From Deltaproteobacteria bacterium (GTDB lineage Bacteria > Desulfobacterota > GWC2-55-46), in contig JACRNN010000045.1 in the NCBI GenBank assembly GCA_016234955.1, positions 1-41,714 on the forward strand: 41,714 nt of DNA, given 5' to 3'. Numbering within the stretch: the first letter of the stretch is position 1; the number at the start of each line of letters is the position of its first letter. Made by a program: the position numbers and the translations under genes. Positions 7,315 to 30,565 of the stretch are shown one piece after another. A model generated the notes under the pieces. It saw only the letters and a program-made list of their open reading frames with translations, was not told the DNA's origin and did no database searches.

Positions 7315-7722
7315 CTACTTCGGCTCTACCGGATAACCGGCTCTTACCCAGGCGTCAAAGCCTCCCTTGAGCGCCTTGACCCTCTGAAAGCCCTTTGACT
7401 GAAGTATCAGCGCCGCACCGGCGCTGGAGGCCTCGTCCGGTCACGTGCAATAGGTGATTATCTCCTTGCCCATCGGAAGCTCCGCGGACTTTTCGTCCAG
7501 GTCGCTGTAGGCCATCCTTACGGACCCCTTTATCCTGACCTTGCTCGACCTGTACGAGCCGCCGGAGCGCACGTCGAGTATGACGATGCCTTCGCCGCTG
7601 TCGATCTTTGCCTTGAGTTCGTCAACCGTTATCCTCGGCACCCGGGAAGAATCCGCGGCATAGACACGCGCCGAAAAGATTACAAACGCCACGGCCGCAA
7701 GTACGAAAAACAGTCTGCGCAT
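7315..7722 (-). CDS. Exported single-domain rhodanese (sulfurtransferase) with predicted selenocysteine at the catalytic position (135 aa, U94)
   Basis: Track ORF 7441..7722 ends ...KEIITYCT at TGA 7443..7441. The same frame continues for 41 codons (PDEASSAGAALILQSKGFQRVKALKGGFDAWVRAGYPVEPK) to TAG 7317..7315, completing the rhodanese fold. The TGA aligns with the catalytic Cys of GlpE (CYHGNSS versus UPDEASS). The signal peptide is MRRLFFVLAAVAFVIFSARVYA. Confidence 0.75.
7409..7425 (-). promoter_or_regulatory. Candidate bacterial SECIS hairpin
   Basis: The minus strand reads UGA, 15 nt, then AGCGCC-GGUGC-GGCGCU. The perfect stem can extend to CAGCGCC/GGCGCUG, and the apical loop contains GU. 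Confidence 0.55.
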
Positions 7723-12009: not shown

Positions 12010-15000
12010 ATGGAGATATCAACACATCTTAAAGTCGTCATACCGCTGGTAAAGGCCTCTGACCACGACGGGGTCTTAAGTGAGCTCTACGCGAGTCTTG
12101 AGCTTGCGGCCGGCGCCGACAGGGCCAAGGTAATATGCGATTTCAAGGGCCACGAAAACTCCAACGCGGCGCTCTCGAGGGCGCAAACGGCCATATTCCA
12201 CTGCCTCTCCGAAGAGATAACGGAGCCTTTGATAGCGGTCGCGGTCTCTAAAAAAGGGGTGCCTGAGCCCAAAGGCGGGGGCAGGTTGCATGTATTTTTC
12301 GTGTTGTTATCCCCCATAAGGGACAGCGGAACCCACCTCCAGCTCCTCTCCAGGCTCGAGGGGATAGCCCTGGACAGGGCCTTCCATCACGCCATACTCC
12401 GTACAGGTGATGAGGCCGGGATAAGAAAGGAGATCGAAAAGGCCGAAGGGGCCTCGCGCACCCTGTACATGCCGCTTTCGAGGGAAGAGGTCTTCTCAGA
12501 GCTCGAAACCACTGAAAAGGGGCTGACCGAGGAAGAGGCGAGGAGGAGGCTCAAGACGGCCGGGCCGAACACCCTGAAGAAGGCGGTAAACATATCGCTC
12601 ATAAAGGACTTTTTCTCAAACCTCTTTTTCAACCTCTTCGCCGTGCTCCTATGGGCGGGCGGGTTCATGGCCTTTGCGGCGGACATGGCCGAGCTCGGAT
12701 GGGCCATATTCTCGGTTATAATAATAAACGCCGCCTTCAGCTTCTGGCAGGAGTACAAGGCCGAGCGGGCCGTGGAGGCGATAAAGAGGCTTCTGCCGCG
12801 CAAGGTCAGGGTCGTAAGGGACGGTGAGGTCAAGGAGATAGACGCCTCGGTCCTTGTGCCGGGGGACCTTATCAACCTCTCGGAGGGCGACAGCATACCG
12901 GCGGACGGCAGGCTCGTGGGGGCCCAGGACATGCGCGTGGACAACAGCGCCCTCACCGGCGAGAGCAAGCCCGTATACAAACTCGCCGAGCCTCTGCCGA
13001 GCGAGCGCGGCTTCATCTGGACGGAGGTCCCGAACCTCGTCTTCGCCGGCACCTCGGTGCTCTCCGGCGCGGGCAGCGCGATAGTGACGGCCACGGGGAT
13101 GGATACCGAGATAGGCCGGGTAGCGTCCATGACCGAGGCGATAAGGCCGGAGAAGAGCCCCCTGCAAAAAGAGATCGTCCGCATAACAAAGACCATCAGC
13201 CTCATAGCGGTTTTCCTCGGCGTGGTATTCTTCTTCCTCGGCTACCGCATGGCGGGGCTCACCTTCGCGGAGAGCTTCCTCTTCGCCATAGGCATAATAG
13301 TGGCCAACGTGCCGGAGGGGCTCCTGCCCACGGTATCGCTGTCGCTCGCCATGGCGGTGCAGAAGATGGCCGAGAGGAAGGCGATAGTAAAAAAGCTCTC
13401 CGCCGTTGAAACGCTCGGCTCAGCCACCGTAATATGCACGGACAAGACCGGCACCCTTACCGCCAACCAGATGTGCGTGGCGAAGCTATTCGTGGACGGC
13501 CTTCTGATAGAGGTCACGGGCTCGGGGTACGAACCCGCCGGGGAGTTCGTATTGAACGGGAAGCCGGTCGCCGGGGAGGACTTGCTGGCCCTCGGGGCAA
13601 CGGGGCTTTTGACGGCCTCGGCCCTGTGCAACAACGCATCCTTGCGCCCGCCGTCAAATGAGCGCGGCTACTGGACCATCACCGGCGACCCGACGGAAGG
13701 CGCCCTTGTCGCGGCCGCGGCAAAGGCGGGCCTGCGGCTCGACGACCTCGCCGTGAGGTTTCCGAGGACCGCCCAGCTCCCCTTCGACAGGATAAGGAAG
13801 AGGATGACGACGATCCACTCGGTAAAGGACGCGGGCGCCCTCGGCCTGCGGGGCGCCGACCGGGGGACCGGAGCTATAGCCGTCACAAAAGGCGCCCCCA
13901 GGGAGACACTCGAACTATGCTCGCGGGCGTACCTCGGCGGCAAGGACGTGGAGATGACCGAAGGGTACAGGAATAAGGTCCTCGAAGAGAACGACCGCAT
14001 GGCCTCGATGGGCTTGAGGATACTTGCCGTGGCCGCGCGCGGGGTCGAGGCAAAAAGGTCATACCTGAACGATGAGGTGGAGACCTCCCTCACCTTTATC
14101 GGCCTCGTGGCGATGCTCGACCCGCCGAGGCCGGAGGTGAAAAAGGCTGTCGGCGACTGCAGGGAGGCCGGAATAAAGATAGTCATGGTAACGGGCGACT
14201 ACGGGCTTACGGCCCTGTCGGTGGCCGCTCAGATAGGGCTCGGCCTGAACCCGAGGCTAATAACCGGGGAGGAATTGAGCGCCATGGGCCACGGGGTGTT
14301 GCAGGGGGTGCTCAAGGAAGGCGGGGCGATATTCGCGAGGGTGGCCCCGAAGGACAAACTGAGGGTCGTCACCGCGCTCCAGGACAACGGGGAGATAGTG
14401 GCCGTGACCGGCGACGGGGTGAACGACGCCCCGGCGCTTAAAAAAGCCGACATAGGGGTGGCGATGGGCCTCAGGGGGAGCGACGTGGCGAAGGAGTCCG
14501 CGGAGATAGTCCTTGCGGACGACAACTTCGCCACCATAGTGGAGGCGATACGGGAAGGCAGGGCGGTATTCGCCAACATAAAGAAGTTCATAACCTATAT
14601 CTTCGCCAGCAACATACCGGAGATAGTGCCGTTCATAGCGTTCGTGTTGTTCAGGATACCTCTTCCGCTGACGGTCATGCAGATTCTGGCCGTGGACCTC
14701 GGCACCGACGTCTTCCCCGCGCTCGGCCTCGGCATGGAGCCGCCTGAGGCCGGGGTGATGAAACAGCCGCCCAGGCCTAAGCACTCAAGGCTCCTTGATT
14801 TCAAGACCCTTGTTAGGGCCTATCTATTCCTCGGGCCCATAGAGGCCGCGCTCTGCCTCGGCGCCTTCTTCTTCGCCTACCGGTTGAGCGGCTGGTCCCC
14901 CGGAGAAACGATGTCCGGGAGCGGGGCCGTATATGCCGTCGCCACGACAATGACCTTCGCGGGCATAGTGGCGACCCAGATAGGCAACGTCTTTGCGTGC

Positions 15001-15249
15001 AGGACCGGGAAGGATTCGGTCTTTACCGCTGGCATCTTCAAGAACCGGTTCGTCCTCTACGGCATAGCGGCCGAGGCCGTCATCATGCTCCTGCTCATAT
15101 ACGTACCGCCGCTCGCGCGCGTCTTCGGCTTCGCCCCCCCGGGGTGGAAGGGGTGGGGACTGCTCCTGATATTCCCTGTGGTGATGCTCGCCTCCGACGA
15201 GGCGAGAAAGGCCCTTTTAAGAAAAAAAACGCGGCCTCGGCATGATTGA
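12010..15249 (+). CDS. P2-type cation-transporting P-type ATPase with N-terminal PTS-EIIA-2 (PtsN-like) domain
   Basis: ATPase motifs are present: LTGESKPV, PEGL, ICTDKTGTLT, KGAPRE, MLDPPRPEV, MVTGD and VAVTGDGVNDAPALKKADIGVAMG. The first ~150 aa align with EIIA(Ntr): TAIFHCLSEE against GIAIPHGKLEE, and HVFFVLLSPIRDSGTHLQLLSRLEGIA against DLLFALLVPADQTKTHLHTLSLVAKRL. Confidence 0.9.
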   Translation: MEISTHLKVVIPLVKASDHDGVLSELYASLELAAGADRAKVICDFKGHENSNAALSRAQTAIFHCLSEEITEPLIAVAVSKKGVPEPKGGGRLHVFFVLLSPIRDSGTHLQLLSRLEGIALDRAFHHAILRTGDEAGIRKEIEKAEGASRTLYMPLSREEVFSELETTEKGLTEEEARRRLKTAGPNTLKKAVNISLIKDFFSNLFFNLFAVLLWAGGFMAFAADMAELGWAIFSVIIINAAFSFWQEYKAERAVEAIKRLLPRKVRVVRDGEVKEIDASVLVPGDLINLSEGDSIPADGRLVGAQDMRVDNSALTGESKPVYKLAEPLPSERGFIWTEVPNLVFAGTSVLSGAGSAIVTATGMDTEIGRVASMTEAIRPEKSPLQKEIVRITKTISLIAVFLGVVFFFLGYRMAGLTFAESFLFAIGIIVANVPEGLLPTVSLSLAMAVQKMAERKAIVKKLSAVETLGSATVICTDKTGTLTANQMCVAKLFVDGLLIEVTGSGYEPAGEFVLNGKPVAGEDLLALGATGLLTASALCNNASLRPPSNERGYWTITGDPTEGALVAAAAKAGLRLDDLAVRFPRTAQLPFDRIRKRMTTIHSVKDAGALGLRGADRGTGAIAVTKGAPRETLELCSRAYLGGKDVEMTEGYRNKVLEENDRMASMGLRILAVAARGVEAKRSYLNDEVETSLTFIGLVAMLDPPRPEVKKAVGDCREAGIKIVMVTGDYGLTALSVAAQIGLGLNPRLITGEELSAMGHGVLQGVLKEGGAIFARVAPKDKLRVVTALQDNGEIVAVTGDGVNDAPALKKADIGVAMGLRGSDVAKESAEIVLADDNFATIVEAIREGRAVFANIKKFITYIFASNIPEIVPFIAFVLFRIPLPLTVMQILAVDLGTDVFPALGLGMEPPEAGVMKQPPRPKHSRLLDFKTLVRAYLFLGPIEAALCLGAFFFAYRLSGWSPGETMSGSGAVYAVATTMTFAGIVATQIGNVFACRTGKDSVFTAGIFKNRFVLYGIAAEAVIMLLLIYVPPLARVFGFAPPGWKGWGLLLIFPVVMLASDEARKALLRKKTRPRHD

Positions 15250-15318
15250 CGGTATAAAAAAACTTGAATATCCTCCATAGGTTCTATATCATAAAAGAGT
15301 CAAGGTTCCCTTCAATTA

Positions 15319-15416
15319 CCCCGCCATAAATGGCGGGGATTGTCGGCAAGGTACTTGCCTTTCTTTTATATAGCTCGGCTTTGACCCGCCCTTGAAAGGG
15401 CGGGATTTTCGCCGAG
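15319..15416. repeat. Pair of REP-like hairpins downstream of the ATPase gene
   Basis: CCCCGCC ataaat GGCGGGGATTGTCGGC and CCCGCCC ttgaaa GGGCGGGATTTTCGCCGAG have the same hairpin-GGGGATT architecture as the R1 core. An outer stem CTCGGC/GCCGAG encloses the second one. Confidence 0.6.
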
Positions 15417-15442
15417 CACCCGATTAAAAAGGATGGGTATTT

Positions 15443-15937
15443 ATGTCTGAACAGGCAAATAGCAGGGATTCAGTAACCATCGTCCTATTCAGCGGCGACC
15501 TGGACAAGGCCATAGCCGCCTTCGTGATAGCCACCGCCGCCGCGTCCATGTGTATGAAGGTCAATATTTTCTTCACCTTCTGGGGCTTAAACGTCATAAA
15601 GAAAAAGGGCGGGCTCATAAAGGGGCGCAACTGGATGCAGAAGATGCTCAACATGATGAACTACGGGCACGCGCGCAGGCTCGCCCTCTCGAAGATGAAC
15701 ATGCTCGGCATGGGCCCGGCCATGCTCAAGGCGATGATGGCGCAAAAAAAGGTCCCGGGCATCCATGAATTCATCTCCACGGCCCATGAGCTCGGCGTCA
15801 AGTTCTACCCGTGCGAGATGAGCATGAGCGTGATGGGGCTCAAGGAAGAAGACTTCCTGGACGAATGCCAGGGGGTGATCGGGGCCGTCTCATACCTCGC
15901 GATAGCGAAGGAATCGAACGTAAACCTATTTATCTGA
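15443..15937 (+). CDS. DsrE/DsrF-like (DsrE2-type) sulfur relay family protein
   Basis: A 164-aa ORF: VTIVLFSGDLDKAIAAFVIATAAASMCMKVNIFFTFWGL ... VKFYPCEMSMSVMGL. It has the architecture typical of COG2210 proteins that pair with TusA, and TusA is encoded 83 nt downstream. Confidence 0.7.
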   Translation: MSEQANSRDSVTIVLFSGDLDKAIAAFVIATAAASMCMKVNIFFTFWGLNVIKKKGGLIKGRNWMQKMLNMMNYGHARRLALSKMNMLGMGPAMLKAMMAQKKVPGIHEFISTAHELGVKFYPCEMSMSVMGLKEEDFLDECQGVIGAVSYLAIAKESNVNLFI

Positions 15938-16020
15938 CGCGGCCGCGTCAAGCACGGTTTTCATCCGCGTTGCTTCAAAGGCGCGGGAAGTCCTATTACC
16001 GGTAACAGAGGTGCTTCATA

Positions 16021-16257
16021 ATGTCACAATATCAGGTGGATAAGACCCTGGATGCCCGCGGGCTTTGCTGTCCCATGCCGTCCGTAAAGACCGCCCTGGC
16101 GCTTGAGAGGATGGATTCCGGCAACGTCATCGAGGTGCTTACCGACGACCCGGTGTCGAGGAGGGACCTGCCGGTCTGGGCGCAGAGTACCGGCAACATA
16201 CTCCTGGGCGTGGAAGAGGAAGACAAGACCATCAGAATATATATTCAAAAGGCTTGA
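16021..16257 (+). CDS. tusA: TusA/SirA-family sulfurtransferase
   Basis: A 78-aa ORF with the signature LDARGLCCPMP (CPxP motif), followed by VIEVLTDDP. Confidence 0.85.
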   Translation: MSQYQVDKTLDARGLCCPMPSVKTALALERMDSGNVIEVLTDDPVSRRDLPVWAQSTGNILLGVEEEDKTIRIYIQKA

Positions 16258-23187: not shown

Positions 23188-24766
23188 TCAGCAGTAAAGG
23201 GGGCTCTTGCACGTCAAGACCTGCTCGGCCCTGGTCCCGGCCCTGTAGACAGTAATGCCCTTACACCCGAGCTTATAGGCCATGAGGTACGCGTCCCTCA
23301 CCTCCTCCACCGTCGCCCCCGGCGCGAGGTTTATGGTCTTGCTCACGGCGTTGTCCGTATGCCTCTGGAAAGCGGCCTGCATCCTTATATGCGCCTCCGG
23401 GCTTATATCGAAAGCCGTTGGGAAGACGTTTTTGACCGCCTCCGGGACGTCGTCCCTTTTCTTTATGTCCCCGTTGTCCGCCATGTAGCTGATAAGCTCA
23501 GGGGTGTAGAACCCCTCCTCCCTTGCGACCTCTTCCACAAGGGGGTTGACCTCCGGCATCCTGACCCCGTTCAAGACCTGTCTGGTATAGCTCAGGGAAT
23601 AGAACGGCTCTATGCCGGAGGAACACCCGGCTATGATGCTGAGCGTGCCCGTGGGGGCGATCGTCGTAGTCGTGGCGTTCCTCACCAACGCTCCCCCCGG
23701 CTTGTCAAATACGCTCCCCTTGAAGTTCGGGAACCCGCCCCTCGCCTTTGCCAGCGCCCTCGATTCGTCCCAGGACGTCTCCCTTATGAACCCCATCACC
23801 TCTTCGGCCCCTTACCGCGAGCCTGACCGTTGCCCCGAGCCTTTCATAATCGAGCGCCCAGGACCCGCCCTCCCTTTTGAGCATCCTTGAGAGGTTCAAG
23901 GACCCGAGGTTGCACGGCTCGTAGGAGAGGAGCGGCTGCTCCCCGCACGGGTTAGTGGCCTCTATGCCGCCGAGGAGCGGGGTGGGGTTGTCCCTGTTTA
24001 TCCTGTCTATGAAAATGACGCCCGGCTCGCCGTTCCTCCATGCGCACTCTACTATCCTGCCGAACACCTCGGCCGCGTCCTTAATCCCCACGATCATGCC
24101 TGTCCTCGGGTTTACAAGGGGGTAGCCGGCCCCCCTTTCCAGCGCGTCCATGAACTCATCCGTTATCGCCACGGAGAGGTTGAAGTTCGTGAACTCGGCC
24201 GGGTCTTCCTTAACCGTTATAAATGAGATGATGTCGGGATGGTCCACGCGCAGTATCCCCATGTTGGCCCCGCGCCGCGTTCCCCCCTGCTTTATCGCCT
24301 CGGTGGCGGCGTTAAAGACCCTCATGAAGGAGACCGGGCCGCTCGCCACCCCGCCGGTCGAGCCGACGATGTCGTTCGAGGGCCGGAGCCTCGAGAATGA
24401 AAAGCCCGTCCCTCCGCCGGACTGGTGTATTATGGCGGTGGTCTTAACGGCCTCGAATATCGACTCGAGCGAGTCCTCCACCGGAAGGACGAAACAGGCG
24501 GAGAGCTGCTGGAGCCTCCCGCCGGCGTTCATGATGGTCGGGGAATTCGGGAGGAAGCGGAGCGAGGCCATCAACCGGTGGAACTCCTCCTCGTAGCGCG
24601 CAACGTCCGCGTCCCTCGCATATAGCTTCTCGGCAAGGGCGACGTTGGCGGCAACGCGCCTGAACATCTCCTCAGGCGTCTCCGCGACCTTGCCGAACCG
24701 GTCTTTTTTAAGGTACCTGCGCTCAAGCACCGTGAGCGCGCCTGGCGTCAATTCGAGGGCCGTCAT
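23188..24766 (-). pseudogene. nrdJ: Class II (adenosylcobalamin-dependent) ribonucleotide reductase NrdJ, disrupted by an internal deletion plus frameshift
   Basis: Two track ORFs cover it (23705..24766 and 23188..23799). The N-part is colinear with Thermotoga NrdJ up to ...TVRLAVR ([35 protein letters not shown]). The C-part resumes in another frame at [29 protein letters not shown]. About 53 aa are absent (FLDNVIDV...GLGxMGFADLL...). The junction is at about 23805-23812. Confidence 0.8.
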
Positions 24767-24896: not shown

Positions 24897-25439
24897 ATGA
24901 TCGATATCCGGGGCGCAAGGCCCGTCTATGCGGCCTTGTTTTTAATGATAGCCCTTGCATTGCTCTCCGGGTGCAAGAAGGTTGAAAAGGAAAAAGCCTC
25001 CGTTATGGAGAACCTGCCCGCCGGGGCCCGCGCGGCGGCGCCGCCGTTTACGATAAAGACGCTTGCCGGGAATGAAATCAGCCTTGAGAAGCTCAAAGGG
25101 AAGGTGGTCGTGATAAACTTCTTCGCCTCATGGTGCGGCCCCTGCGCGTACGAGGCCCCCGTGCTCCAGAGGCTCTATCTCAAATACCGGGAGAGCGGGG
25201 TGGAGTTCGTCGGCATAGCCGTGCAGGACAGTCTTGAAGCGGCCTCCGGCTTTGTAAAGGAGCACGGCTGGACCCTGCCGGTGGGGCTCGACAAGAACGA
25301 CGCCATATCCGGCGCGTACAATGTGTTCGGGGTGCCCAAGACCAGCCTGGTGGGAAAAGACGGACGCATCGCTTACGAGCACATGGGCGCCGTCACCGAG
25401 GAAGTCCTCGACGCGGAGATAAAAAAGGCGATGCGATAA
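24897..25439 (+). CDS. TlpA/ResA-like thiol-disulfide oxidoreductase lipoprotein
   Basis: Track ORF trimmed to the ATG at 24897, with GGGGG upstream. The lipobox is LALLSGC and the thioredoxin motif is FFASWCGPC. Confidence 0.85.
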   Translation: MIDIRGARPVYAALFLMIALALLSGCKKVEKEKASVMENLPAGARAAAPPFTIKTLAGNEISLEKLKGKVVVINFFASWCGPCAYEAPVLQRLYLKYRESGVEFVGIAVQDSLEAASGFVKEHGWTLPVGLDKNDAISGAYNVFGVPKTSLVGKDGRIAYEHMGAVTEEVLDAEIKKAMR

Positions 25440-25493
25440 AGGCGGAGCCCCTCCGAAGCGATAGTCCCTTGCCGCGGCCCGAGGGGCCTGACA

Positions 25494-25526
25494 GTTGCGG
25501 GGAATGCGCTCGCTATGCATGTTCAA
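25494..25526 (+). repeat. R1-family repeat, short copy
   Basis: GTTGCGGGGAATGCGCTCGCTATGCATGTTCAA, with degenerate hairpin remains upstream (CCTTGCCGCGGCCCGAGGGG). Confidence 0.75.
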
Positions 25527-25530
25527 AAAG

Positions 25531-25648
25531 ATTAAGATGCAAGGGGTCGAGAAAGTGAGGCAGGGCTCCCATTGCGTCTTTACAATTGCAATGGGAAGGC
25601 GTACAAGGATAGTACGCCGCGGATGGGCTTTTTAAGCGGCCTGTTAAG
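25531..25648 (-). repeat. R2-family repeat, copy 2 (inverted relative to 7937-8046)
   Basis: The reverse complement reads TTAACAGGCCGCTTAAAAAGCCCATCCGCGGCGTAC-N7-GTACGCC...CTCACTTTCTCGACCCCTTGCATCTTAAT. It carries an extra hairpin, CCCATTGC-N12-GCAATGGG, and overlaps the stop codon of the zinc-ribbon gene. Confidence 0.7.
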
Positions 25649-25826
25649 CGTGCCCCCCGCCCTTCTCAAGGTTTTCGATCATATCGGTGAACATCGTCCC
25701 CCTTATCGTGGTCTTCTCCCCGCACTGTGGACACTCTATCACGGCGCCGTCCTTGAGGTCCTTCGCCTTTTTGCTGAACTCCTTGTTGCAGACGGGGCAT
25801 GTTATCTTGATAACCAGATCCGCCAT
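25644..25826 (-). CDS. Small zinc-ribbon protein (CxxC...CxxC)
   Basis: A 60-aa ORF, MADLVIKITCPVCNKEF...VIECPQCGEK, with a strong RBS (AGGAG 8 nt upstream). Confidence 0.7.
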   Translation of the reverse strand: MADLVIKITCPVCNKEFSKKAKDLKDGAVIECPQCGEKTTIRGTMFTDMIENLEKGGGHA

Positions 25827-26010
25827 CTCAATCGCTCCTTACCTGATTTCGTTCCCTTCCCTATCCACGGCCCTTTACGCGAAAAAGCCGCCACATATCT
25901 GTACCACAGAAATAACTTCCGGGCAACCCCGCTCTGAGCGGGCTAATGAACCCTCCGAGGCTTAAAAACCCAGATGGCTTCAGAACGCCAAGGATTATCG
26001 CTCCCATAAA

Positions 26011-27195
26011 CTAATACCCCCTGGCAAGAAGCTCTTTAACCGGGACCTCTCTTCTAAATAACAGATAGCTTGACCCTGACGTATTCTTGAGCGCCTCTTT
26101 GAGTTCCTTTCTCTTCATGGAAGGGTCCCGTCTCTTAACGGCGCTCTCAAAAAAACGGTTATAAAACTCATCAGGGAAGACCCAGACCTCGAAAACGAGC
26201 CGCTCGGCCTTGACAGGGCGCTTGACGCCGTAGTCGAATTCGTGGCTCTTGAACGGCGGGAGCCTGGTGTCGAAAAGTTCCTTTGAAAGGTCCAGGGTTA
26301 CTTTTCTCCCGATTACCGCCTCCTTCAAGGTGCCTTTCAATATCCTTCCCCTCGCGTCAATCAGAAAACCCTTTATTACGACAAGGGGCGTGACGTAAGT
26401 CGGGAAGTAATGGCCCACCCCGGAGTTGGTAATCCTGAGTTTCGCGCCGACGCTGTCATCTCCCACGTTACTTTCCACATCGAAGGTAACCCCGCTTTTG
26501 ACCATATCCGGGTCATGGATGCCTCTGAAAAGATGCCTCCGGCCGGGCATATGGCAGCTCTGACATGCGATATCGCCCTTTCCGTACTCGCTTTCCTTCC
26601 ATTCCATGTAAGTATTTACGAGGAGCTTCCCGTTCAAGTCAAATCCTTCGTCAAGCTGATGGCACGCGGCGCAAAACTCGGCTTTTCCAAAAAATTCGTT
26701 TTGAACCGAAGCGTGATCGGCTTTTACCGTTGCCTTGAGTCCGTCCTGGCCAGGAGAAGCCGGACCGAAGACGCCGCTCCGTCTCACATGGCATACGGCA
26801 CAGCTTACACCCGATAATTTCAGTCTTTCATCAAAAGAGCCGTTGGAAAGATATGCCTTCTCTCCCGGCTCCCGTTCATCAACGATCACTTCATTCTGCA
26901 AAGCAAGGGGCGCATGGCAGTAATAGCAGGAACCGGCTGTTTGCGGGTCGGTCTCCGGGCGTAATTGGGCAAGAAGCCCGGGCCCTACACTCTTACTGTG
27001 AAGCGCCCCTCTCCAGTCCTCGTACTGGTCCCGATGACACTTTACGCATCTCTCCGGGTAGAGGTCTTCCGCGGACCTTGAAGGGCCGGTCTTTACCGGC
27101 CTCAGCCAGTGTTCATGCGCGGCGGCTTCTCCCCCGATGGCGGGCGGAGGAGAAGTCAACGCCAAAAAAATGGTGAAAACGATTAGCTTCAGCAC
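26011..27195 (-). CDS. Periplasmic pentahaem c-type cytochrome
   Basis: A 394-aa ORF with a GTG start 13 nt after the upstream cytochrome stop. It has a signal peptide (MLKLIVFTIFLALTS...) and five CxxCH motifs: CVKCH, CYYCH, CAVCH, CAACH and CQSCH. Confidence 0.85.
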   Translation of the reverse strand: MLKLIVFTIFLALTSPPPAIGGEAAAHEHWLRPVKTGPSRSAEDLYPERCVKCHRDQYEDWRGALHSKSVGPGLLAQLRPETDPQTAGSCYYCHAPLALQNEVIVDEREPGEKAYLSNGSFDERLKLSGVSCAVCHVRRSGVFGPASPGQDGLKATVKADHASVQNEFFGKAEFCAACHQLDEGFDLNGKLLVNTYMEWKESEYGKGDIACQSCHMPGRRHLFRGIHDPDMVKSGVTFDVESNVGDDSVGAKLRITNSGVGHYFPTYVTPLVVIKGFLIDARGRILKGTLKEAVIGRKVTLDLSKELFDTRLPPFKSHEFDYGVKRPVKAERLVFEVWVFPDEFYNRFFESAVKRRDPSMKRKELKEALKNTSGSSYLLFRREVPVKELLARGY

Positions 27196-27208
27196 CTGAA
27201 CGCCCGCT

Positions 27209-27727
27209 CTACTTCATCTTGCAAGGGTTCTTTGCGCCGCACGGGTTTTTCATGCCGCAGGGATTCACAGGCGTTGCGCTCTCCCTTGAATTAGCCGTTA
27301 TATAAGCGGCAAGGGCGGTCATCTCCTGAGAGTTCCAGGCAAGCGGCTTGCCCTTCATTGGGTTTACCATGCAGAAGTTTATCATTTGGTCCATGGTAAC
27401 TATATCGCCTGTCATGTTGATATGCTTCGGGAAAGGCTCCTTTTTCAGTCCCGCTCCTTTCGGGTGGCAGGTGCCGCAGGCCGTGCCGGATGTCCCGAGC
27501 GCGGTATCACCCCACAACTTCTCACCCATCTCCTTGAGCATGGCAGAGTCCTTTATGGGATTCTTTCTGATCGGGATGCCCTTTGAGGCGCATGGATTAC
27601 CGGCCATGCAGGGGTTTTTGGAGCATGGGTTCTTGTCCCTGGCCGCCGCTCCGTCTACAAAACCCAAGGTTATAAGCATAGGGGCTATCAAAAATATTTT
27701 TAAAAGCTTCACGTAAACTGGCCGCAT
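27209..27727 (-). CDS. Monohaem c-type cytochrome with NPC hexapeptide repeats at both mature termini
   Basis: A 172-aa ORF with a strong RBS (GGAGGA) and a signal peptide. The single haem motif is CGTCH. The N-terminal tail is KNPCSKNPCMAGNPCA and the C-terminal tail is NPCGMKNPCGAKNPCKMK. The core (MDQMINFCMVNPMKGKPLAWNSQEMTALAAYI) is reminiscent of SoxA/TsdA-like domains; that comparison is from memory. Confidence 0.85.
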   Translation of the reverse strand: MRPVYVKLLKIFLIAPMLITLGFVDGAAARDKNPCSKNPCMAGNPCASKGIPIRKNPIKDSAMLKEMGEKLWGDTALGTSGTACGTCHPKGAGLKKEPFPKHINMTGDIVTMDQMINFCMVNPMKGKPLAWNSQEMTALAAYITANSRESATPVNPCGMKNPCGAKNPCKMK

Positions 27728-27779
27728 ATTTCCTCCGATTGACCGTAATATAAAACCTGATACGGCTTAAGCAACAGCC

Positions 27780-28106
27780 TTACTTAACCGCGCACGGGTT
27801 CTTCGCGGCGCATGGGTTTTTGGCCGCACACGGGTTCTTTGCCGCGCATGGGTTCGCTGTCTTGTTCATTTTCTTGCTCTTTTTCTTACTCTTCTTTGAA
27901 CAAGGGTTCTTTTTGGCGCAGGGGTTCTTGGCCGCGCACGGGTTTTTGACCGAACAAGGGTTCTGGGCGGCACAGGGGTTTTTTATCGAGCATGGATTAC
28001 CTTCTTTTGCCGATTGAACGCCCTGTGCAGGCTCGATGGCAACAGCCATGGATGCAAAGGCAAAAAAGGCTACAACGGCTATCAAAGCGCCTAATTTCTT
28101 TTTCAT
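27780..28106 (-). CDS. Secreted cysteine-repeat protein: signal peptide + 10 x NPCxx[KQ] hexapeptides
   Basis: Track ORF trimmed to the ATG at 28106, with AAGGAG upstream. The sequence is MKKKLGALIAVVAFFAFASMAVA-IEPAQGVQSAKEG-NPCSIK NPCAAQ NPCSVK NPCAAK NPCAKK NPCSKK-SKKKSKKMNKTA-NPCAAK NPCAAK NPCAAK NPCAVK. The repeats differ at synonymous sites. Confidence 0.8.
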   Translation of the reverse strand: MKKKLGALIAVVAFFAFASMAVAIEPAQGVQSAKEGNPCSIKNPCAAQNPCSVKNPCAAKNPCAKKNPCSKKSKKKSKKMNKTANPCAAKNPCAAKNPCAAKNPCAVK

Positions 28107-28237
28107 TTTGATTGAAATCTCCTTTCGGTTGGAATTAAGGTGCCCGTATTCAACCTCGAAGTGCAACAGAGGGAGAAGCTGCATCGATTCTGCTCTCCCA
28201 AGCGTCGCACTTCATTGTTGAACTGACGGTTGTTTTT

Positions 28238-28396
28238 TCAACAGCACTCAGCTTTTTTCTTGAAGCAACATTCGGCGGCTTTTTTGCCCGAGCCGCAGGA
28301 GCACGATTCATTTCTTCCGCAACATTCGCCGTATTTCTTGCCGGACCCGCAGGGACATGATGTGGCTAGCTTTGTTTTTTTGGTCTGTTCCGCCAT
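28238..28396 (-). CDS. 52-aa Cys-rich miniprotein with two tandem SEC-C motifs (not in ORF track)
   Basis: My own translation: MAEQTKKTKLATSCPCGSGKKYGECCGRNESCSCGSGKKAAECCFKKKAECC*. The RBS GGAGGTG lies 6 nt upstream of ATG 28396..28394. CPCGSGKKYxxCC is the SecA C-terminal metal-binding (SEC-C) signature. Confidence 0.7.
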   Translation of the reverse strand: MAEQTKKTKLATSCPCGSGKKYGECCGRNESCSCGSGKKAAECCFKKKAECC

Positions 28397-28756
28397 GGTC
28401 TTCACCTCCTTCCTGGATTTAATTTTAAAGTCTTTTTTACTTGCAACTATAAGGTTATACCCTGGTATCCTTCGCGCATCAAAGCCGAAAGACCGGGGCG
28501 CGCCATATACTCCCCGGCCATAAATGAAGCCAGAGCTTTTTCACATTCTCCACATCCTGGAGGGCTTTCTCAAAGATGGGCCGGGCCTTTCATCACCGAG
28601 GCGTTCACCCTTTTTCAGGGTGATACATACTACCTTAACCCCTTTTACGGCCCTGCCGGATTCAGGTGACGCCGCTCTTTTGCTTTTCTTCATGGAGGAA
28701 CTATATCAGAAAGATGATAGAAATGATGTAAGGCGGCTTACAAATTGAGAAAAAAA

Positions 28757-29428
28757 TCAGGCGAGATGCTTTGAAGACAGGATAAAATATTTCCCATCCA
28801 TCAGTATGTCGCCGCTCCTCTTAAGGTTGTTTAATTCAAGCGTGACCGTCTCTCTCGTGGCCCCTATAAGGCCGGCTATTTCCTTATGCGTCAGCCGAAG
28901 CTCTATCTTGCTGCCGCCATCGACCGGCACCCCGTACTTTTGGACAAGGTCTCTGAAGATGGTAATAAGCCTGGAGCGGGCATCCTTAAAAAGCATATCC
29001 ATGAAACGGCTCTCGACCCTCCTCAACCGAAGCCCTATCCACTTCGTTATGGTAAGAGACAGGTCCGGCATCTTGCCGATAAAATCCTCGAAGTCCTTCC
29101 GTCTAATGGCGCATATGTAGGAGTCTTCCATCGCCGCCGCGCTCGATTCCCTCACCTGCCCTCCGGCCACGGTCAGATCGCCGAACATGTCACCCGGCTC
29201 AAGGATATCGACTGTAAGCTCCTTTCCATCCGGTGAAAATTGCGTTATCCTGACCCTGCCTTCCTTCAGGATATAAAGAGTCTCGGCCTTATCTCCCGGG
29301 TTATAAACAAGGCCTCTTTTCTTAACATGCCTCTCCGTCAGCCTGGACGCTATCTCGCCCTTATCTCTTTCTGAAAGCCCGGAGAAGATTTTATTCGTAT
29401 TCATGTACCAGAGTCTTGTCTTATCCAT
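28757..29428 (-). CDS. Crp/Fnr-family transcriptional regulator (cNMP-binding domain + HTH)
   Basis: Track ORF trimmed to the ATG at 29428 (MDKTRLWYMNTNKIFSGLSERDK...); an alternative ATG is at 29404. Features include LYILKEGRVRI and RLTHKEIAGLIGATRETVTLELNNLKRSG. There is no N-terminal Fnr-type Cys cluster. Confidence 0.85.
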   Translation of the reverse strand: MDKTRLWYMNTNKIFSGLSERDKGEIASRLTERHVKKRGLVYNPGDKAETLYILKEGRVRITQFSPDGKELTVDILEPGDMFGDLTVAGGQVRESSAAAMEDSYICAIRRKDFEDFIGKMPDLSLTITKWIGLRLRRVESRFMDMLFKDARSRLITIFRDLVQKYGVPVDGGSKIELRLTHKEIAGLIGATRETVTLELNNLKRSGDILMDGKYFILSSKHLA

Positions 29429-29460
29429 TCCAGCCCTTCGCGGGTAGACCAGGCAAGTTT

Positions 29461-29500
29461 TTGAACATGCATAGCGGGCGCCACAGCGTTGAGGCGCTGC
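29461..29500 (-). repeat. R1-family repeat, degenerate short copy
   Basis: TTGAACATGCATAGCGGGCGCCACAGCGTTGAGGCGCTGCGGG retains the GAACATGCATAGCG module and a substituted hairpin. Confidence 0.55.
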
Positions 29501-29543
29501 GGGCCGGCCCCTGGTCCGCCGCCGGATTTTAAAAGAGTCTCCT

Positions 29544-29813
29544 TCACTCCTCCAGGAGCGTGGAAAACGTATTGTGATGCCCTTCCTCTTCCGCGAGGAT
29601 GTCGGTAAAGAGCTTGGAGGTGACCGGGTCCCCCTCCTTTTCACTGAGCGCGATTATCTCCTTGTACAGGGCGATAGCTCCTCCTCGTCCTTCTTGTTTA
29701 TCGCTATCATTTCCTTAGCCTTCTTGCACGTGCCGCCAGATGTACTGGACCGATACCTGTATCTCCCCCGCTATCGCCTCGTTCAGCCTGTCCAGCAGTT
29801 TCCTGCTCGCCAT
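29544..29813 (-). pseudogene. Decayed bacterioferritin/ferritin-like gene remnant
   Basis: My own translation: MASRKLLDRLNEAIAGEIQVSVQYIWRHVQEG, then TAA (29717..29715), then ...AIALYKEIIALSEKEGDPVTSKLFTDILAEEEGHHNTFSTLLEE*. A fragment KKAKEMIAI sits in a second frame. The N- and C-terminal helices match Bfr-like proteins, but about 60 central residues are missing. Confidence 0.6.
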
Positions 29814-29836
29814 GAATTCTACTTTGAGAAAATAAC

Positions 29837-30565
29837 TTATCCCTTCGTCTTTACTTCCGATATCAGCGCGATGAAGCCGTCTATCTTCGCCTTGACCTCG
29901 GGCGATATCTTTTCAAACATCACCCCTATCTTTATCCTGTCCACGTCCTTGCTTATGCTCCTCACCTTCCCCGTAAACCTGAACCTCTCTTCCGTGCCGG
30001 GGAACTGCGCCCGGATATCGAGGTCGGTATCCACACGTATCAGCGCGTTGAGCGCTTCGCCCCTTGCCCCGGAAGCCTTGATAAAGCACTGGCACCCTTC
30101 CCTGCTTATGTCCACTATGACCATATCGAGTATTTCATTATCGAGCATGGCCATCGCCGGCAGGACGCACTCGTGCCTCGAATCGGGCCGCGCCTTGAAC
30201 TCCTCGACCTTCGAGGGATAGGCGAGGAACATCAGCTTGCATGGGTTGGAGACGATATTGAGCACCTCGCTGTTAAAAGAGTAGACCGTGTCCTTGTATT
30301 GGAACTTGACGATGACCGGGCTCCTGGTGACCATCTCGCTCCTGAACGTCCCCATAAGGTCGTTGGGGGATAGTTTGATCAGGAGGAAACGGCCGCCGTC
30401 CATGCCCGCCAGGACGCTCCTTATGCGCAGGTTGAGGTTGACTATCTCGGCTATAAGCTCCGTGCCGAGGGTTATCGGGAGATGGACGGGCGAAGCGGCA
30501 GACCTGTCAACCTGCTGCCTCTCCGTATGTGTTTGAGAAGGCGGATTATTGGATTTGGTCTCCAT
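29837..30565 (-). CDS. YcgR-like / PilZ domain c-di-GMP receptor
   Basis: A 242-aa ORF. PilZ signatures are RPDSRHE (RxxxR-like) and VDISREGCQC (DxSxxG), preceded by a YcgR-N-like beta-barrel region. Confidence 0.75.
   Translation of the reverse strand: METKSNNPPSQTHTERQQVDRSAASPVHLPITLGTELIAEIVNLNLRIRSVLAGMDGGRFLLIKLSPNDLMGTFRSEMVTRSPVIVKFQYKDTVYSFNSEVLNIVSNPCKLMFLAYPSKVEEFKARPDSRHECVLPAMAMLDNEILDMVIVDISREGCQCFIKASGARGEALNALIRVDTDLDIRAQFPGTEERFRFTGKVRSISKDVDRIKIGVMFEKISPEVKAKIDGFIALISEVKTKG

Follow-up and report, generated by a model that had tools for sequence, protein, structure and literature searches.

Ligation by histidine and cysteine is rare among c-type haems, and the characterised ones matched in this study (SoxAX, TsdA and MccSep) carry out an unusual S-S chemistry that is central to the sulfur cycle. 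SoxAX makes an S-S bond on a cysteine arm of SoxY; TsdA and MccSep act on free substrates. This paper concerns an operon on a 41,714-nt stretch of DNA, hereafter the window (GenBank assembly GCA_016234955.1, contig JACRNN010000045.1, from the metagenome-assembled genome of a groundwater deltaproteobacterium of the GTDB lineage GWC2-55-46), which encodes a small secreted protein made of repeats around the tripeptide Asn-Pro-Cys (NPC) and, next to it, a monohaem cytochrome c of the SoxA/TsdA type carrying the same repeat at both ends. Such a pairing suggests that there is a periplasmic redox system, based on thiols, which has so far escaped description. It is real and widespread but uncharacterised; as to its function, homology and gene neighbourhood suggest that the NPC module may carry sulfur or a metal. 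With a probability of about 0.35, the locus would be a periplasmic redox module built around the cytochrome, in which the NPC cysteines may be thiolate arms serving a putative His/Cys-ligated haem. The genes of the operon are the following:

28238..28396, minus strand: SEC-C miniprotein, 52 amino acids (aa), 10 Cys (PF02810, two stretches, E 2.2e-11)
27780..28106, minus strand: stand-alone secreted NPC-repeat protein, 108 aa (from translation)
27209..27727, minus strand: monohaem SoxA/TsdA-type cytochrome c, 172 aa (PF21342, the SoxA/TsdA cytochrome c domain, 55.8 bits against a cut-off of 27)
26011..27195, minus strand: pentahaem c-type cytochrome, 394 aa (five CxxCH motifs; match to PDB 5ZE8)

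With SoxAX/SoxYZ the NPC cytochrome shares the fold and family of the haem domain (PF21342), a cysteine aligned with a haem-ligating cysteine and, as proposed here, a flexible Cys arm offered to an S-S-forming His/Cys haem. It is, however, monohaem instead of di- or trihaem, no SoxX, SoxYZ or GGCGG arm was recognised, and the arm would here consist of multi-copy NPC borne by the cytochrome as well as by a repeat-only protein. TsdA, likewise matched in fold (Foldseek probability 1.0), differs in being dihaem, in acting on free thiosulfate and in having neither Cys-repeat tails nor a pentahaem partner. MccSep/ExtKL and cytochrome c552 of T. tepidum, a purple sulfur bacterium, resemble the pentahaem protein of the operon in the five-haem cap and the C-terminal beta-sandwich, with detectable homology; unlike MccSep, the window protein has no haem-ligating Cys beside the CxxCH motifs, no selenocysteine (Sec) or Cys in the corresponding place, and zero non-haem Cys. 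MccSep of Geobacter is a pentahaem selenoprotein that reduces polysulfide and selenite by means of a His/Cys haem and Sec, and the paper describing it draws the same parallel to the S-S chemistry of the His/Cys haems of SoxAX and TsdA (PMC13510729).

Outside the haem proteins, metallothioneins, phytochelatins and Csp share with the NPC protein the dense Cys thiols in a small polypeptide; the NPC protein, in contrast, has isolated cysteines, is periplasmic, Lys-rich and predicted to be disordered, and is tied to cytochromes. A further parallel is MrpX, which Melnyk et al. are said to have described in 2015 as a Met-rich peptide acting with YedY and SigF/NrsF in hypochlorite scavenging. Like MrpX, the NPC protein is a small secreted peptide dominated by one redox residue and encoded with a recycling protein, often together with a pair of extracytoplasmic function (ECF) sigma and anti-sigma factors. 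Unlike MrpX, it uses Cys and a putative His/Cys cytochrome in place of Met and a molybdoenzyme, its anti-sigma factor is a short zinc-binding one (ZAS), and the sequences are unrelated.

The operon and the NPC repeat

Open reading frames (ORFs) and translations were computed for the whole 41.7-kb window, and protein families were assigned with Pfam-A and NCBIfam models. On the minus strand the genes for the SEC-C miniprotein, the NPC-repeat protein, the monohaem cytochrome and the pentahaem cytochrome follow one another head to tail in this order, and a terminator scan detected no terminator-like site between them; an Rfam scan of 25000-30000 returned only a sub-threshold miRNA match. An earlier note on this DNA had described this layout, and computation agrees with it: the translation with ten NPC units in blocks of six and four after a signal peptide, the coordinates with a CGTCH cytochrome bearing NPC at both ends, whose gene starts 52 nt downstream of the NPC gene behind a ribosome-binding site (GGAGG), and with a pentahaem gene starting 13 nt past the cytochrome stop, and the Pfam matches with an upstream 52-aa double SEC-C protein of 10 Cys and a Crp-family regulator.

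The NPC protein begins with a Sec signal peptide, MKKKLGALIAVVAFFAFASMAVA, cleaved between …ASMAVA and IEPAQ, and its mature part, 85 aa long, starts with IEPAQGVQSAKEG. The first block comprises six units (NPCSIK, NPCAAQ, NPCSVK, NPCAAK, NPCAKK, NPCSKK) and the second four (NPCAAK, NPCAAK, NPCAAK, NPCAVK); a Lys/Ser-rich linker, SKKKSKKMNKTA, splits the two. In the window's remaining ORFs of 100 aa or more, two NPC tripeptides occur in 19,331 residues, which corresponds to about 0.01 per 108 aa against the 10 observed, so that the density in the repeat protein is some 1000 times theirs. Codons vary across the units (AAT/AAC, CCA/CCC/CCT/CCG, TGC/TGT), and Tandem Repeats Finder gives only 72-78% likeness among the 18-nt units.

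A word-indexed search with the NPC-repeat query yielded 238 relatives, namely secreted repeat-only proteins of 60-125 aa and PF21342 cytochromes of about 170-290 aa; relatives of both kinds go by no other source names than 'hypothetical protein' or 'c-type cytochrome'. A whole-library phmmer run with the repeat protein gave 148 matches at E <= 1e-3, useful mainly for new fusions, the low number being due to the down-weighting of low complexity. Across 199 NPC proteins the consensus unit is K-N-P-C-[AGS]-[AMV], the spacing between units is most often 6, then 5, then 3 residues, and exact NPC holds 85% of the non-haem Cys. The cysteines stand isolated, one per 5-6 residues, without CxC, CxxC or CC clusters. 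Met makes up 19% at one x position, and some stand-alone proteins have His/Met-rich linkers (HHKKSHHKK, KGHEGHKGHG, QHNHDM).

The plan of two blocks and a Lys-rich linker is kept in the close relatives L001, L009, L010 and L012, with 6-10 copies. One of these loci, L009, is about 94-95% identical to the window; its NPC gene differs by 11 synonymous and 7 non-synonymous codons, has no indel and keeps 10/10 NPC. These codon differences alone do not show constraint. Across the relatives, NPC is fixed while copies and x positions drift, and therefore the tripeptide is constrained and copy number loosely so. The suggestion of the earlier note that the peptide is maintained by selection is supported for the tripeptide, while the x positions and the number of units drift. 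Its other claim, that no characterised family is built on this repeat, stands: Pfam-A and NCBIfam contain no family above threshold for it (Pfam gives one sub-threshold, spurious AtDEF-like match), and the NPC repeat strings, the tailed cytochrome subfamily and DUF6969 (see below) were not found in the searchable literature. No convincing NP-UGA variant, with Sec for Cys, was seen inside the repeats.

Judging by sequence, the NPC repeat appears to be a portable module on unrelated periplasmic or membrane domains. Fusions to domains other than the cytochrome are rarer and involve YHS (P0332, P0357), cytochrome P460 (P0341), TPR (P0008, in locus L090), Redoxin (P0098), LysM (P0073), DUF6789 (P0358, P0367) and PDZ-like domains. 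The NPC-TPR gene of L090 adjoins genes for a 591-aa multihaem cytochrome and a Crp-family regulator. Readings of the repeat as a precursor of a ribosomally synthesised and post-translationally modified peptide, as a haem-regulatory CP motif or as a sorting signal were dropped: the signal peptides are ordinary Sec ones, the order is Pro-Cys and not Cys-Pro, both termini bear repeats, and there is no linked maturase.

The two cytochromes

The monohaem cytochrome consists of a signal peptide, an N-terminal tail of three units (KNPCSKNPCMAGNPCA), a core at about 50-150 with C84-G-T-C87-H88, and a C-terminal tail of three units (NPCGMKNPCGAKNPCKMK). That the core is SoxA/TsdA-like, as had been surmised from the letters, is confirmed by the PF21342 score, by matches to SoxA 1H31 (PDB) at E 1e-8 with the single sequence and 1.2e-13 with a profile, and by Foldseek, whose 13 best PDB matches are SoxA or TsdA without exception (probability 0.89-1.0). 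TsdA is also among the profile matches, at E ~3e-3. In the AlphaFold2 (AF2) model the core has a predicted local distance difference test score (pLDDT) above 94 and the tails 39-65, and the tails are accordingly predicted to be disordered. The NCBIfam SoxA equivalog, TIGR04484, gives 54 bits against a cut-off of 110, with only the N-terminal half of the model covered, and in place of the two haem domains of TsdA there is a single CxxCH in a single domain of about 100 residues. Being monohaem and far under the SoxA equivalog cut-off, the protein belongs to a new subfamily which is neither SoxA nor TsdA.

In 93 homologues the residues that never vary are solely C84, C87, H88, P100, C119 and P123. 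The cysteine in 'MINFCM', C119, is aligned to that in SoxA 'QMINAC', position 114 by count in 1H31_A and the axial ligand of SoxA haem 1. The single-sequence match to TsdA joins query 98-145 to chain 75-122; if ungapped, it would place C119 on TsdA position 96, the ligand of the catalytic haem. His/Cys ligation of the monohaem cytochrome is thus suggested by sequence comparison.

A search of metagenome protein sets with the cytochrome found 109 relatives after 90% clustering, or 127 when the tailed cytochromes already met by the repeat query are included. An NPC tail stands before the haem site, after it or on both sides in about 123 of these 127 CxxCH homologues (0-21 copies), so that the co-occurrence of the repeat with CxxCH proteins, put forward earlier as a check, proves strongly conserved. 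Tails are also present in nearly all of 85 genomic loci, and across GTDB loci the copies range over 0-32. Such near-constant co-occurrence is an argument for joint action of tail and haem site. The median number of tail copies is 8 in cytochromes that adjoin a stand-alone NPC protein and 11 in the others (p = 0.051); dosage compensation between the two was rejected, the trend being weak and not significant.

In Motiliproteus the cytochrome (L003:6400-7365) has 321 aa and 27 NPC units, which are mostly found in a tail of about 130 residues at the N-terminus. The public record, P0090 (152 aa), begins past that tail, hence the annotation truncates the protein. As for the window, the exact 108-aa NPC and 172-aa cytochrome sequences have no entry in a 15-billion-protein collection, which does hold the SEC-C protein (MBI5902205.1) and the pentahaem protein (P0212); the depositors probably called the two genes from other start codons or overlooked them.

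The pentahaem protein combines an N-terminal domain with five CxxCH and a C-terminal beta-sandwich, and has no Cys beyond the ten that bind haem. Its best match is T. tepidum c552 (5ZE8): phmmer gives E 2.2e-10 in two stretches, and Foldseek E 4.6e-13 over 427 columns, with a TM-score of 0.42 and a low-confidence AF2 haem domain; the beta domain, 236-385, is modelled confidently. MccSep (9WT9) is matched more weakly (E 7e-7), and with NCBIfam ExtKL the protein reaches 63 bits where the cut-off is 250. The MccSep segment 'QCCTSY', with C239/240 as ligand of haem 2, aligns to 'LVNTY', that is, Leu/Val for Cys, and MccSep U325 has no Sec or Cys counterpart; most of the ~45 pentahaem partners at other loci have no extra Cys either. 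By its sequence the protein is thus assigned to the c552/MccSep fold family, minus the features that define MccSep. Lacking a Cys ligand and Sec, it is more likely an electron wire than a catalyst, and the only His/Cys haem of the operon would be that of the monohaem cytochrome, whose ligation is itself predicted.

Distribution, neighbouring genes and regulation

GTDB was scanned, one genome per species, with the motif M[IV][NQ][FLI]CMxxPM, which gave at least 555 confirmed loci. The hosts of the best 80 are groundwater 'Deltaproteobacteria', Thermodesulfobacteriota, Nitrospirota, Nitrospinota, Tectomicrobia, Rokubacteria, Methylomirabilota, tubeworm endosymbionts, Sedimenticolaceae, Gallionella, Ferrigenium, Thauera, Azoarcus, Denitromonas, Nitrosomonadales and Oceanisphaera. 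Carriers in culture include Motiliproteus sp. MSK22-1 (L003), Oceanisphaera (L005, L070), Denitromonas iodatirespirans IR-12 (L085) and Ferrigenium sp. UT4 (L088). A tblastn search of plasmids returned a single unannotated match on a Cupriavidus megaplasmid and was uninformative. Gene neighbourhoods were counted in 85 loci by ORF calling and clustering made for this analysis (L094 and L030 are the same place and were counted once):

45/85 loci: pentahaem cytochrome, usually directly downstream of the tailed cytochrome
41/85 loci: DUF6969 protein, His-rich and apparently cytoplasmic, usually directly downstream
15/85 loci: both pentahaem cytochrome and DUF6969
14/85 loci: neither of the two
23/85 loci: stand-alone NPC protein no farther than 6 kb away, in most cases directly upstream
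30/85 loci: ECF sigma factor (TIGR02943 type)
17/85 loci: short zf-HC2 (HxxxCxxC) anti-sigma factor
21/85 loci: YeeE/YedE-type transporter
20/85 loci: MerA-like flavoprotein disulfide reductase, some fused to DedA
19/85 loci: thioredoxin-like protein
7/85 loci: CcdA
16/85 loci: 160-aa periplasmic protein of no recognised family
11/85 loci: CMD/AhpD
11/85 loci: Crp-family regulator directly upstream of the cytochrome operon
9/85 loci: SEC-C miniprotein, in close relatives only
7 loci: ArsS (TIGR04167, 457 bits against a cut-off of 300)
5 loci: EgtB (563 bits against a cut-off of 360)
3 loci: ArsC-like low-molecular-weight phosphatase

The universal feature is therefore the tails on the cytochrome, not the stand-alone NPC protein (23/85). 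The order of repeat-only protein followed by tailed cytochrome nonetheless recurs in a delta-type metagenome-assembled genome (L001), Motiliproteus (L003), P. aeruginosa (L004), Nitrosomonas (L006) and a metagenome contig (L092); in Motiliproteus the genes for Redoxin, NPC protein, cytochrome and pentahaem protein are collinear. In L014:7981-10019 and L094:7899-10038 a PiT/CysP-like transporter and an ArsM-like S-adenosylmethionine methyltransferase are encoded directly downstream on the same strand, with the cytochrome upstream and, in L014, the pentahaem protein as well; the methyltransferase scores 231 bits against a cut-off of 263 for the arsenite methyltransferase model NF008823. The genes merR-merT-merP lie beside the P. 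aeruginosa locus, and MerR-like and MerT-like ORFs, judged by sequence alone, near L014. A reading of the system as mercury-related was rejected, save as one element of the metalloid alternative discussed below: the MerA-like neighbours do not reach the cut-off for MerA and have no C-terminal pair of Cys, and the P. aeruginosa mer genes look like island neighbours.

Around the tailed cytochrome of beta- and gammaproteobacterial loci (L004-L006, L042-L088, L092) a second gene set is seen, with DUF6969, a YeeE/YedE-like transporter, the ECF (TIGR02943 type)/zf-HC2 pair, a MerA-like reductase either free or fused to DedA, the 160-aa periplasmic protein, DUF302, a C92 amidase-like protein, CMD/AhpD, thioredoxin with CcdA, ArsS and EgtB. 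None of this set is described as a system.

Around the operon, the window holds these further features:

28757..29428, minus strand: Crp/Fnr-family regulator, cNMP-binding domain and HTH_Crp_2 (Pfam/NCBIfam)
28727..28742, no strand: 16-bp palindrome TGTAAGGCGGCTTACA, candidate operator, between the crp stop and the SEC-C gene
24897..25439, plus strand: ResA/TlpA-like periplasmic lipoprotein thiol:disulfide oxidoreductase (AhpC-TSA/Redoxin, E 1e-24)
25644..25826, minus strand: zinc-ribbon protein DUF7836, 60 aa, 185 nt downstream of the pentahaem gene

The coordinates of the crp gene assume that it starts at the ATG of MDKTRLWY, the likely start, within a full ORF of 28757-29644; Crp-family genes occur also at L090 and L096, beyond the 11/85 counted. 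The palindrome, TGTAAG-N4-CTTACA, was found by cross-locus comparison, a generic search for upstream inverted repeats being uninformative. It has its sole match in the window here (0.04 expected), overlaps a -35-like hexamer and lies at a promoter-like site, 28743-28714. Between crp and the cytochrome operon it recurs in five further distinct loci, six in all (L011:563-578, L014:5426-5441, L026:6475-6490, L094:6280-6295, which is L030, and L096:6690-6705), and since it is conserved in that position the adjacent Crp-family protein is the likely regulator. The same palindrome at L036:3134-3149 lies upstream of genes for a glutaredoxin-like protein and a PiT transporter. From its sequence, TGTAAG-N4-CTTACA may be regarded as a candidate regulon operator.

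The redoxin of the window has an LLSGC lipobox and a WCGPC motif, scores 116 bits, under the cut-off, against NCBIfam ResA, and is encoded convergently with the operon, as in L009; in L001 and in Motiliproteus the NPC gene is immediately preceded by a co-directional Redoxin gene. The ResA/TlpA-like redoxin and the conserved Crp-type operator belong to the picture. The SEC-C miniprotein, annotated as 'SEC-C domain-containing protein', is cytoplasmic and contains the zinc-binding motif Cx[CS]GSGxKxxxCC; its gene is directly upstream of the operon in nine related loci and missing there in the 95%-identical L009, and it is a lineage-restricted accessory gene. Whether DUF7836 is a member of the system is uncertain, as it did not recur in the neighbourhood clustering. 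Farther off, ribonucleotide reductase is broken up over a pair of overlapping minus-strand ORFs, 23705-24766 and 23188-23799, where L001 has a single gene of 576 aa; the probable cause is a frameshift or an error of assembly.

Proposed function and its alternatives

I know of no characterised enzyme among the matches of the monohaem core that does other than S-S bond chemistry at a His/Cys haem. Since SoxAX does so on a flexible arm, a model similar to SoxAX-SoxY is the most economical one. In this model the NPC cysteines would be multivalent, flexible thiolate arms, and the Lys beside them would bring down the pKa of the thiols and draw in anions; these Lys residues fit anionic chalcogen substrates such as polysulfide, thiosulfate and selenite. 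The arms would form covalent S-S(-X) adducts with a thiol-reactive chalcogen (sulfane sulfur, polysulfide, thiosulfate, possibly selenite) and swing to the His/Cys haem, at which the S-S bond would be made or broken while electrons pass in or out via the pentahaem cytochrome. The stand-alone NPC protein would add carrier capacity, and the TlpA-like redoxin would reset wrongly disulfide-bonded Cys and so keep the arms reduced. The YeeE/YedE-type transporters of sulfur or selenium compounds in 21/85 loci, the frequent adjacency of Redoxin, thioredoxin or CcdA, and hosts such as sulfur-oxidising tubeworm symbionts and Sedimenticolaceae count in favour of this model.

A number of observations weigh on the other side. 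The conserved Met120 and Met124 are possible alternative haem ligands. Within SoxA, the best alignment of the core is to the N-terminal domain, that of haem 1; this haem is not known to be the catalytic one of SoxA, although the equivalent domain is catalytic in TsdA. No ORF in 89 loci ends in a SoxY-type GGCGG C-terminus, and no SoxX-like partner was recognised in the neighbourhood clustering, in which no dedicated SoxX/SoxZ model was run. NPC occurs also on cytochrome P460, YHS, TPR and LysM, that is, on proteins without sulfur chemistry, several loci suggest arsenic or other metalloids over sulfur, and the window's genes for DsrE, TusA and rhodanese show no linkage to the operon.

In a different view, the NPC arrays would be periplasmic sites for soft metals or metalloids, i.e. 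As(III), Se/Te species, Hg(II) or Cu(I), that sequester the ion or pass it on, the haem chain altering its redox state or the arrays feeding cytoplasmic methylation or reduction. Metal binding of this kind seems somewhat unlikely to me, but it is a rival to be taken seriously. It would make sense of the ArsM-like and PiT/CysP-like genes downstream in the independent loci L014 and L094, of ArsS and the ArsC-like phosphatase, of the MerA-like reductases and of the mer genes by the P. aeruginosa locus and near L014, as well as of the NPC-YHS fusions, of the linkers rich in His and Met and the frequent Met at one x position, and of the operon palindrome ahead of the glutaredoxin-like/PiT pair in L036. 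On the other hand, the repeats are strongly cationic and mostly free of acidic or His ligands, which is unusual for cation binding; an efflux pump, P-type ATPase, ArsB/Acr3, ArsR or ArsA was not recognised among the inspected neighbour clusters, many of which were judged by eye; the shortcomings of the MerA-like proteins have been mentioned, arsenic genes are present in a minority of loci, and the link of the repeat to a SoxA/TsdA-type haem is left unexplained. That link, together with the strict Asn-Pro before each Cys, also speaks against a third possibility, quite unlikely though likewise a serious rival, namely that the NPC peptides serve in the periplasm as a thiol buffer, sacrificial or regenerable, against electrophiles or reactive chlorine, nitrogen, sulfur or oxygen species, with haem and redoxin recycling the Cys in a putative analogy to MrpX with YedY and SigF/NrsF: a simple scavenger needs neither the Asn-Pro nor an obligatory fusion to a putative His/Cys haem.

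A buffer would be in keeping with the ECF sigma (30/85) and zf-HC2 anti-sigma (17/85) factors, with peroxiredoxin, AhpD/CMD, thioredoxin with CcdA, glutaredoxin and EgtB in the neighbourhoods, with the hybrid-cluster protein and hemerythrin near L096, with NPC tails on unrelated periplasmic proteins, and with a copy number so variable that thiol dosage alone might matter; the window locus, however, has a Crp-type regulator and no ECF/ZAS pair. The tails might finally have no chemistry of their own and dock the cytochrome, through disulfides or electrostatically, onto partners or an anionic surface (mineral, envelope), or they might be tolerated low-complexity spacers, as their predicted disorder, their Lys content, their very variable length at either or both termini, the fusions to LysM, TPR and PDZ-like binding domains and the weak trend towards fewer tail copies beside a stand-alone protein would allow. 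Since NPC is invariant across phyla while its flanks drift, this role is the least likely of all, and improbable as such; the 85% of non-haem Cys in exact NPC and the 10/10 units kept without indel between window and L009 also count against it, and a dedicated repeat-only gene would be hard to account for as a spacer.

Returning to the thiolate-arm model, a bolder version of it may be put forward tentatively: the (K)NPC repeat might be a hitherto unrecognised, genetically encoded thiol carrier of the multivalent swinging-arm kind, and with its dedicated His/Cys monohaem cytochrome might form a self-contained haem-thiol system, performing a SoxAX-SoxY-type reaction within one polypeptide and a repeat-only helper, on covalently bound chalcogen or metalloid species. 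It is conceivable, if doubtful, that the system is a new class of periplasmic carrier. What is at hand is a large unannotated sister family to SoxAX/TsdA, with a Cys repeat described by neither of the databases searched (Pfam, NCBIfam), in hosts that span tubeworm symbionts, iron oxidisers, nitrifiers, NC10, Nitrospinota and groundwater Desulfobacterota-like bacteria. Were the arms covalent carriers, they would be a second, independent solution of the carrier-arm and His/Cys-haem type beside Sox, and could be the periplasmic sulfur-transfer component whose existence the MccSep authors leave possible (PMC13510729); were they to bind metalloids, they would make up a new periplasmic module for handling arsenic or selenium. 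If the self-contained haem-thiol reading were true, hundreds of chemolithotrophic and environmental species would possess a new class of periplasmic sulfur, selenium or arsenic machinery.

The sulfur genes elsewhere in the window, which the earlier note had adduced for a role in sulfur or chalcogen handling, are present, but the argument drawn from them is weak, for they lie 10-20 kb off among unrelated genes. The DsrE_2-family gene (15443-15937, plus strand) and tusA (16021-16257, plus strand) follow a P-type cation ATPase with an N-terminal domain like enzyme IIA (EIIA) of the phosphotransferase system (PTS), the whole run being 12010-16257 on the plus strand. The rhodanese-like ORF (7315-7722, minus strand) encodes a periplasmic single domain with a signal peptide and has an in-frame TGA at 7441-7443, …EIITYCT[TGA]PDEASSAGAALILQSKGFQRVKALKGGFDAWVRAGYPVEPK. 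Rhodanese-like sequence carries on past the TGA, and a downstream hairpin is not significant against shuffles (z = -0.6); the gene is a candidate for either a selenoprotein, with C-T-U in the active-site loop, or a pseudogene.

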